Assembly (NCBI RefSeq): GCF_003334785.1
Contig: NZ_QOWV01000009.1
Reading direction: 5' to 3' (one strand)
Length of the DNA stretch: 64,000 bases
Origin: Escherichia coli
Lineage (GTDB): Bacteria > Pseudomonadota > Gammaproteobacteria > Enterobacterales > Enterobacteriaceae
Notes under the pieces: model-generated
Told to the model about the DNA's origin: nothing
The model's input: the letters and a program-made list of their open reading frames with translations, nothing else
The model's database searches: none
Part shown: positions 17,391-17,869 of the stretch, in pieces
Position numbering within the stretch: the stretch's first letter is position 1
Layout of the letters: each line of letters begins with the position of its first letter
Program-made: the position numbers and the translations under genes

Positions 17391-17732
17391 TTACGCGACC
17401 TTTTTTGCACGCTCTTCACGGCGTGCCAAATATTCAGCCACTGTTTCAATCCGTCCCAATTCTTCCTGGGTGCGCATGTTGTTTTCAACTTCCCAAAGAT
17501 CAACCGCCGCCTGGAGGTTTAGCCAAAAATCGACTGTGGTATCAAAAACTTTCGCCAGACGAAATGCCATCTCAGTAGTGAGTTTACGATTGTTATTGAT
17601 CAGTGCACTGACGCTATTACGATGAACATGCAGCAACTCTGCTAACTCATTGATTTTCAAATCGAGCGGTTCCAGATATTCATAGAGAAGAATATCTCCG
17701 GGTGTCGTCGGTTTTCTTGTTGCCTGTTTCAT
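17391..17732 (-). CDS. ybaQ: XRE-family HTH DNA-binding protein, HigA-antitoxin-like
   Basis: 113-aa product starting MKQATRKPTTPGDILLYEYLEPLDLKINELAELLHV...; start at 17732 rather than track start 17786. Confidence 0.85.
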   Translation of the reverse strand: MKQATRKPTTPGDILLYEYLEPLDLKINELAELLHVHRNSVSALINNNRKLTTEMAFRLAKVFDTTVDFWLNLQAAVDLWEVENNMRTQEELGRIETVAEYLARREERAKKVA

Positions 17733-17869
17733 GGTTTTTAACTGTTGCTTCCTTGTGAATAGCGATGCAAGAACATACTGAATCATACAAACACATTAAA
17801 CAAGTCTCCAACTCCATTTGCGCCATCCCTCACCGCGCGCTAGCATGATATTTCACAAAGGGAGGTCGT

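Follow-up and report, generated by a model that had tools for sequence, protein, structure and literature searches.

The solitary antitoxin gene ybaQ of K-12-type Escherichia coli, a probable survivor of a higB-1/ybaQ operon

The HigBA pairs of plasmid Rts1, Proteus and Pseudomonas aeruginosa (4MCX, 6JPI, 7CSV) consist of an antitoxin of family TIGR02607 and a toxin of family PF05015, the same families that are found in HigB-1/YbaQ of Escherichia coli, and they share with it a reversed gene order in which the toxin gene is upstream. They are complete autoregulated pairs, whereas the K-12 locus has a solitary antitoxin gene, ybaQ. GraTA of Pseudomonas putida (6F8S, 6F8H, 6FIX) also resembles HigB-1/YbaQ, with the toxin gene first and an HTH antitoxin whose binding site is a palindromic operator. 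The sequence relationship is distant: GraA matches YbaQ at 3e-10, and GraT (6f8s_B, 'putative killer protein') matches HigB-1 at 3.4e-14. The K-12 locus differs further from GraTA in having neither toxin nor operator. Another relative is the HigBA of phage D6 and of D6-like phage-plasmids. Identity is 73–78% between its antitoxin and YbaQ and 80% between its toxin and HigB-1, and it shares the operator core, GCACTTGCGCACAGTGC. This module differs in being mobile and complete, and the C-terminal part of its antitoxin has diverged from that of YbaQ.

The orthologous locus is HigB-1/YbaQ of E. coli phylogroups B2 and F, which occupies the same site between copA and ybaP and encodes an identical antitoxin. 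In these phylogroups higB-1 is found upstream of ybaQ, and it is absent in K-12 (Rousset et al., bioRxiv 10.1101/2020.05.25.114553). The same study finds ybaQ to be essential only in strains that carry higB-1, and reports that knockdown of ybaQ de-represses higB-1 and is lethal, and that phylogroup D has lost both genes; the original role of YbaQ is considered to be the control of higB-1 (Rousset et al., bioRxiv 10.1101/2020.05.25.114553). Whether a core gene counts as 'essential' can thus hinge on an accessory neighbour. YbaQ had been listed as a solitary antitoxin by RASTA-Bacteria in 2007 (PMC2374986), and both the orphan status and the toxin loss are already known from published work (PMC2374986; bioRxiv 10.1101/2020.05.25.114553). 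The present work arrives at the conclusions of Rousset et al. independently, from sequence comparisons. Added here are the frequencies of the different states in 5426 genomes, the pairing of homologues at other sites, the exact identity of the protein, the loss of the operator and the D6 homologue.

The window, i.e., the whole 64 kb stretch of E. coli DNA that was analysed, carries ybaQ on the minus strand at positions 17391–17732, an open reading frame of 113 codons plus the stop codon. The original prediction had placed here a HigA-type, XRE-family HTH protein of this length, and position, length and family assignment all hold. YbaQ scores 105.3 bits on TIGR02607 (antidote_HigA; cut-off 47.7, profile positions 2–80 of 81), matches Pfam HTH_3 (PF01381) at 1.6e-10 and is identical to PDB 2EBY across all 113 residues, so that the helix-turn-helix fold is backed by a structure. 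The next-best structures by sequence are those of HigA, GraA and VapI (3TRB, 6F8S, 2ICP). An upstream in-frame ATG at 17786 would extend the product to 131 amino acids; the N-terminus of the 113-residue form, MKQATRKP, is the start in all YbaQ homologues, and the crystallised YbaQ has 113 amino acids.

Over bases 17000–18000 the sequence matches E. coli K-12 MG1655, and many further strains, at 100% identity. RefSeq labels copA, ybaP and ybaQ in this interval, the last as 'HigA family addiction module antitoxin'; this description is right by family and does not imply that a toxin-antitoxin system is active in K-12. The flanks are as originally described, with a REP array on one side of ybaQ, toward the 3′ end of copA (17075, plus strand), and on the other a 137 bp spacer at 17733–17869 that separates it from ybaP, a divergent gene with its ATG at 17870.

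The C-terminal end of YbaQ, residues 108–113, reads RAKKVA. This hexapeptide is the ClpXP C-motif-2 (PMC9775585), and the C-terminus of YbaQ is a ClpXP degron that several groups have used as a degradation tag (PMC9775585; PMC2907309; PMC6195910). As RAKKVA is a known ClpXP motif, YbaQ would have the proteolytic lability of an antitoxin, and by virtue of this degron it is probably short-lived, as are typical antitoxins.

No toxin gene is present near ybaQ, in agreement with what had been claimed from the sequence, and this extends to the entire window. An HMM of the HigB-1 family, built from 11 members, was run on 2857 six-frame fragments of the 64 kb and gave no match above chance (best score 5 bits, E = 4.5); in control runs it gave 190 bits on an intact toxin and 162 bits on a frameshifted one. 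A tblastn search of the whole window with HigB-1 returned chance matches only. Ten small open reading frames from 17000–18200 show no match to NCBIfam; eight of these, together with YbaP, show none to PADLOC, to which YbaQ itself has weak HTH/control-protein matches only. Open reading frames within the REP array were considered as toxin candidates and are repeat artefacts. A coding remnant of higB-1 in K-12 was also sought, and neither tblastn nor the family HMM reveals one. ybaP was rejected as a partner of YbaQ, as it is conserved whether ybaQ and higB-1 are present or absent. A PF05015 toxin gene directly upstream in the operon, as in complete HigBA loci, is thus missing from the window, and it is found at the orthologous site elsewhere. 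An intact ybaQ, no toxin within 64 kb, and orthologues and homologues that are paired together define a solitary antitoxin.

The junction between ybaQ and ybaP was compared across 5426 complete E. coli genomes, with the states counted from query coverage, so that the numbers are approximate. About 3560 genomes, or about two thirds, have the K-12-like state with ybaQ alone. About a quarter (1267 genomes) carry an extra segment of ∼330 bp between ybaQ and ybaP, annotated as 'type II toxin-antitoxin system RelE/ParE family toxin', and ybaQ is wholly absent from about 590 (∼11%). In the three strains sampled for the extra segment, ST95-32, GPEC60-33-648 and TL20, higB-1 is intact, encodes 100 amino acids and lies 35 bp upstream of ybaQ on the same strand; in Nissle 1917 it is frameshifted. 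The HigB-1 protein matches the HigB-like toxin family PF05015 at 9.4e-32. E. coli HS-02 (NZ_CP172818.1), with 78.7% identity to the higB-1 segment, was considered as an intermediate and set aside as a likely artefact: the higB-1 region of this 'complete' genome (L007:1500–1950) displays long homopolymer runs, the stop codon of ybaQ is gone, and the region looks like a product of assembly or polishing.

YbaQ of K-12 and that of the toxin-bearing strain ST95-32 are 100% identical as proteins. The genes differ at four of 339 nucleotides, all of them synonymous (dS 0.055, dN 0). The K-12 protein is therefore the exact antitoxin that protects toxin-bearing strains. With higB-1 upstream of an identical YbaQ elsewhere and absent here, the suggestion of an orphan antitoxin, or of a remnant left by a toxin-antitoxin pair, is supported.

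Homologues at other sites were collected by scanning a single genome from each bacterial species, which yielded 17 loci encoding relatives of YbaQ. Three of these are at the copA-ybaP site of Escherichia, all without toxin. The other 14 are found in Trabulsiella, Citrobacter, Enterobacter, Kluyvera, Sodalis, Erwinia and E. albertii, at a second locus of Escherichia sp. E1V33 and in a Chloroflexi metagenome-assembled genome; none is flanked by copA or ybaP, and all 14 have a HigB-1 homologue (39–79% identity) immediately upstream. The neighbourhood comparison that had been proposed as a check thus places a toxin partner next to every off-site homologue and none in the window. The pair is also present on phage D6 and a D6-like phage-plasmid, and approximately 92 E. 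coli and Salmonella plasmids of 75–95 kb with phage genes encode the toxin that is 80% identical to HigB-1. The antitoxin of one D6-like plasmid has 83 positions identical to YbaQ, about 73% by a position-by-position count, and that of phage D6 is 78% identical over 105 residues by tblastn; in the plasmid antitoxin and YbaQ it is the C-terminal third that has diverged. The plasmid module has the same operator core as higB-1. As the pair is found in every off-site homologue, in phage D6 and in the plasmids, the two-gene module appears to be the ancestral mobile unit. In Escherichia sp. E1V33 the second site (L014) carries a complete higB/higA pair of the D6 type.

A conserved element, GCAC-N4-GCAC-N-GTGC-N4-6-(G/A)TGC-N2-3-TAnnAT, is found upstream of higB in all 17 enterobacterial toxin-bearing loci compared (three B2-type E. 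coli strains, 13 loci of the species scan and the D6-like plasmid). TTGCGC and TAnnAT, 17 bp apart, resemble −35 and −10 boxes, and the GCAC/GTGC tetramers are arranged as nested inverted repeats, the pattern that a HigA/GraA-type operator would show. The element is thus presumed to be the operator. A YbaQ motif from ChIP-exo is present in the higB-1 promoter (Rousset et al., bioRxiv 10.1101/2020.05.25.114553). None of nine toxin-less loci, this window included, has the operator-promoter element, and the ybaQ-proximal ∼90 nt of these nine contain no GCAC/GTGC tetramers. There is no match to the operator in the window when three mismatches are allowed, and no inverted repeat in its ybaQ-ybaP spacer; the palindromic operator that overlies the operon promoter of a complete HigBA locus is missing. 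Autoregulation of K-12 YbaQ via the family operator has probably been lost, to judge by these comparisons. Operator loss in all toxin-less alleles sampled predicts that YbaQ binds the B2-type higB-1 promoter and not the canonical position in the K-12 promoter.

In place of higB-1, its operator-promoter and the 35 bp higB-ybaQ spacer, the window has a 76 bp stretch at 17733–17808 (minus strand), delimited by alignment and specific to toxin-less genomes, which presumably forms the promoter and 5′ untranslated region of ybaQ. It replaces ∼410 bp of B2-type strains and would be the scar left by the deletion; K-12-type genomes match the B2 segment over its final 61 nt only. These correspond to the ybaP side of the spacer (17809–17869, 61 bp), a stretch of invariant alignment columns that would hold the ybaP promoter and leader and that is common to all E. 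coli states: query positions 410–470 match in 5423 of the 5426 genomes. Two candidate sigma-70 promoters for ybaQ are seen on the minus strand as consensus matches only. One, TGGAGA-17-TATGAT, comes from a promoter scan and spans 17810–17782; the other, TTGTTT-17-CAGTAT at 17803–17775, is in register with TTGCGC-17-TACAAT of higB-1.

In its best ungapped register with the higB-1 promoter, the 76 bp stretch is identical at 22 of 37 positions (binomial 6e-5, for a register chosen post hoc); a promoter-like skeleton is kept and every operator half-site is changed. A free local alignment is not significant, with 269 of 5000 shuffles reaching the score (p about 0.05), and similarity in the ybaQ-proximal half does not exceed chance. 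Homology of the stretch to the higB-1 promoter or to the higB-ybaQ spacer is therefore suggestive only. Identity to the B2 promoter in the best register is ∼60%, and that of the flanks is 97–100%; the stretch is nearly invariant among toxin-less lineages, non-coli Escherichia included. Local divergence of ∼40% beside such flanks indicates that a simple deletion followed by neutral drift is insufficient. The divergence may stem from selection against the operator, from filler DNA or from a complex rearrangement. A plasmid origin was also considered, and the search of plasmids produced only mis-filed chromosomal fragments.

The site has undergone other losses. There are two independent deletions of ybaQ, at L002:2387–2684 in strain M7424 and at L003:2281–2652 in strain 06-00048. 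In M7424 the last six codons of ybaQ are fused to a fragment of the K-12-type promoter. In 06-00048 a B2-type operator fragment, GCACTGTGCACAAGTGC, lies beside a REP unit, and retention of this fragment implies that higB-1 and ybaQ have both gone from the strain. In Escherichia sp. E1V33 the ybaQ copy between copA and ybaP (L013:3001–3323) is disrupted near codon 93 by an internal deletion or frameshift. The gene has thus been dispensable in evolution, deleted in M7424 and 06-00048 and disrupted in E1V33.

From these comparisons, ybaQ of the window is very probably the surviving antitoxin gene of an operon of the HigBA/GraTA kind whose toxin open reading frame was deleted and whose operator is gone. 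The ancestral order would have been operator-promoter, higB-1, ybaQ, inserted between copA and ybaP in an ancestor of Escherichia. A deletion of roughly 340 bp would then have removed the whole toxin open reading frame in the lineage that includes the K-12 type and some cryptic Escherichia clades, leaving ybaQ to be driven from the rearranged 76 bp upstream stretch, with the conserved operator gone. In toxin-bearing strains YbaQ would bind the operator, repress transcription of higB-1-ybaQ and neutralise HigB-1, by family a ribosome-dependent mRNA endonuclease, and turnover of YbaQ by ClpXP would make the pair addictive. In K-12, YbaQ would have no cognate toxin to neutralise and would be a dispensable orphan DNA-binding protein. 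The original prediction had spoken of a decayed pair. The status of a remnant stands; decay in place does not, as the toxin was cleanly removed and left no coding remnant. The locus may serve as an example of chromosomal toxin-antitoxin decay in which the toxin is lost first and the antitoxin persists as an orphan DNA-binding protein.

Two other origins have to be weighed against toxin deletion. YbaQ might be an ordinary, stand-alone transcription factor of the XRE family, similar to antitoxins but at no time paired with a toxin; K-12 lacks a partner gene throughout the 64 kb searched, and YbaQ is counted among uncharacterised Xre-family transcription factors, with ChIP-exo sites and a motif in K-12 (PMC6237786; PMC4797297). 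That other E. coli encode an identical YbaQ immediately downstream of an intact gene for a HigB-like toxin, that all off-site homologues are paired and that ybaQ is essential only where the toxin is present together make this origin extremely unlikely. It is also improbable, if to a lesser degree, that the toxin-less state is ancestral and that B2 and F strains gained higB-1 with its operator-promoter later, e.g., by recombination with a mobile higBA cassette. The same 76 bp stretch is found in E. coli and in non-coli Escherichia (L008 and L013), without statistically solid homology to the B2 segment, which would favour a later gain. However, the pair and its conserved operator occur together in the 14 off-site homologues, in the D6-like phage-plasmid and in phage D6, which argues for an ancestral module of two genes; an inserted segment would need its end precisely at the start codon of ybaQ, with ybaQ left 98.8% identical; and the two further deletions in M7424 and 06-00048 mark the site as deletion-prone. 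With a bipartite module elsewhere, loss of the toxin gene is the simplest account of the K-12 state, and we infer that the direction of the event was deletion and not insertion. Against the simple account, the toxin-less arrangement is also present in the non-coli representatives L008 and L013, which allows more than one order of events within the genus.

A separate question is why the gene has been kept. Among eight toxin-less ybaQ alleles, dN/dS is mostly about 0.05–0.3, rising to about 0.6 for the closest pairs, which points to continued purifying selection, although the numbers are small; selection on an orphan gene would imply some residual role. Singleton replacements in these alleles include E21V, W70R and A109T, of which W70R is non-conservative. 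That K-12 ybaQ is a functionless relic heading for loss is a rather doubtful proposition. The gene is non-essential in toxin-less strains (bioRxiv 10.1101/2020.05.25.114553), has been deleted at least twice independently (M7424, 06-00048), is disrupted in E1V33 and shows variants of the W70R type; yet there is no amino-acid change between K-12 and B2 despite a dS of 0.055, dN/dS is mostly well below 1, and about two thirds of genomes retain the gene without toxin. The reported non-essentiality also argues against a toxin elsewhere in K-12 that would kill upon loss of ybaQ. Retention for anti-addiction, whereby YbaQ would repress and/or neutralise the HigBA of D6-like phage-plasmids and make loss of the element harmless, seems unlikely. 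The D6-like toxin, 80% identical to HigB-1, is present on ∼92 plasmids, together with an antitoxin 73–78% identical to YbaQ and the same operator core, and ybaQ is under purifying selection without its toxin; on the other hand, the C-terminal third of the two antitoxins has diverged, and ∼11% of E. coli have lost ybaQ altogether. That orphan YbaQ was rewired, escaping autorepression through loss of the half-sites to become a constitutive immunity factor that weakens post-segregational killing by D6-like elements, is a distinctly unlikely extension. Anti-addiction concerns why the relic was kept and is compatible with deletion of the toxin gene as its origin.

A REP-type array of three 101 bp units spans 17109–17369, in the gap where the 3′ ends of copA and ybaQ face each other. 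It is context and is outside the toxin-antitoxin relic. B2-type strains (L001, L004) have no REP array, and the copA-ybaQ gap is 57 bp. Strain 06-00048, without ybaQ, has a single related REP unit at the site. These states show that the REP content of the copA-ybaQ gap varies independently of the toxin-antitoxin state. One of the B2-type strains, ST95-32, also carries an extra insertion outside the gap, a DUF6896 gene after ybaK (L004:3813–4042), where K-12 and other strains have ushA directly.
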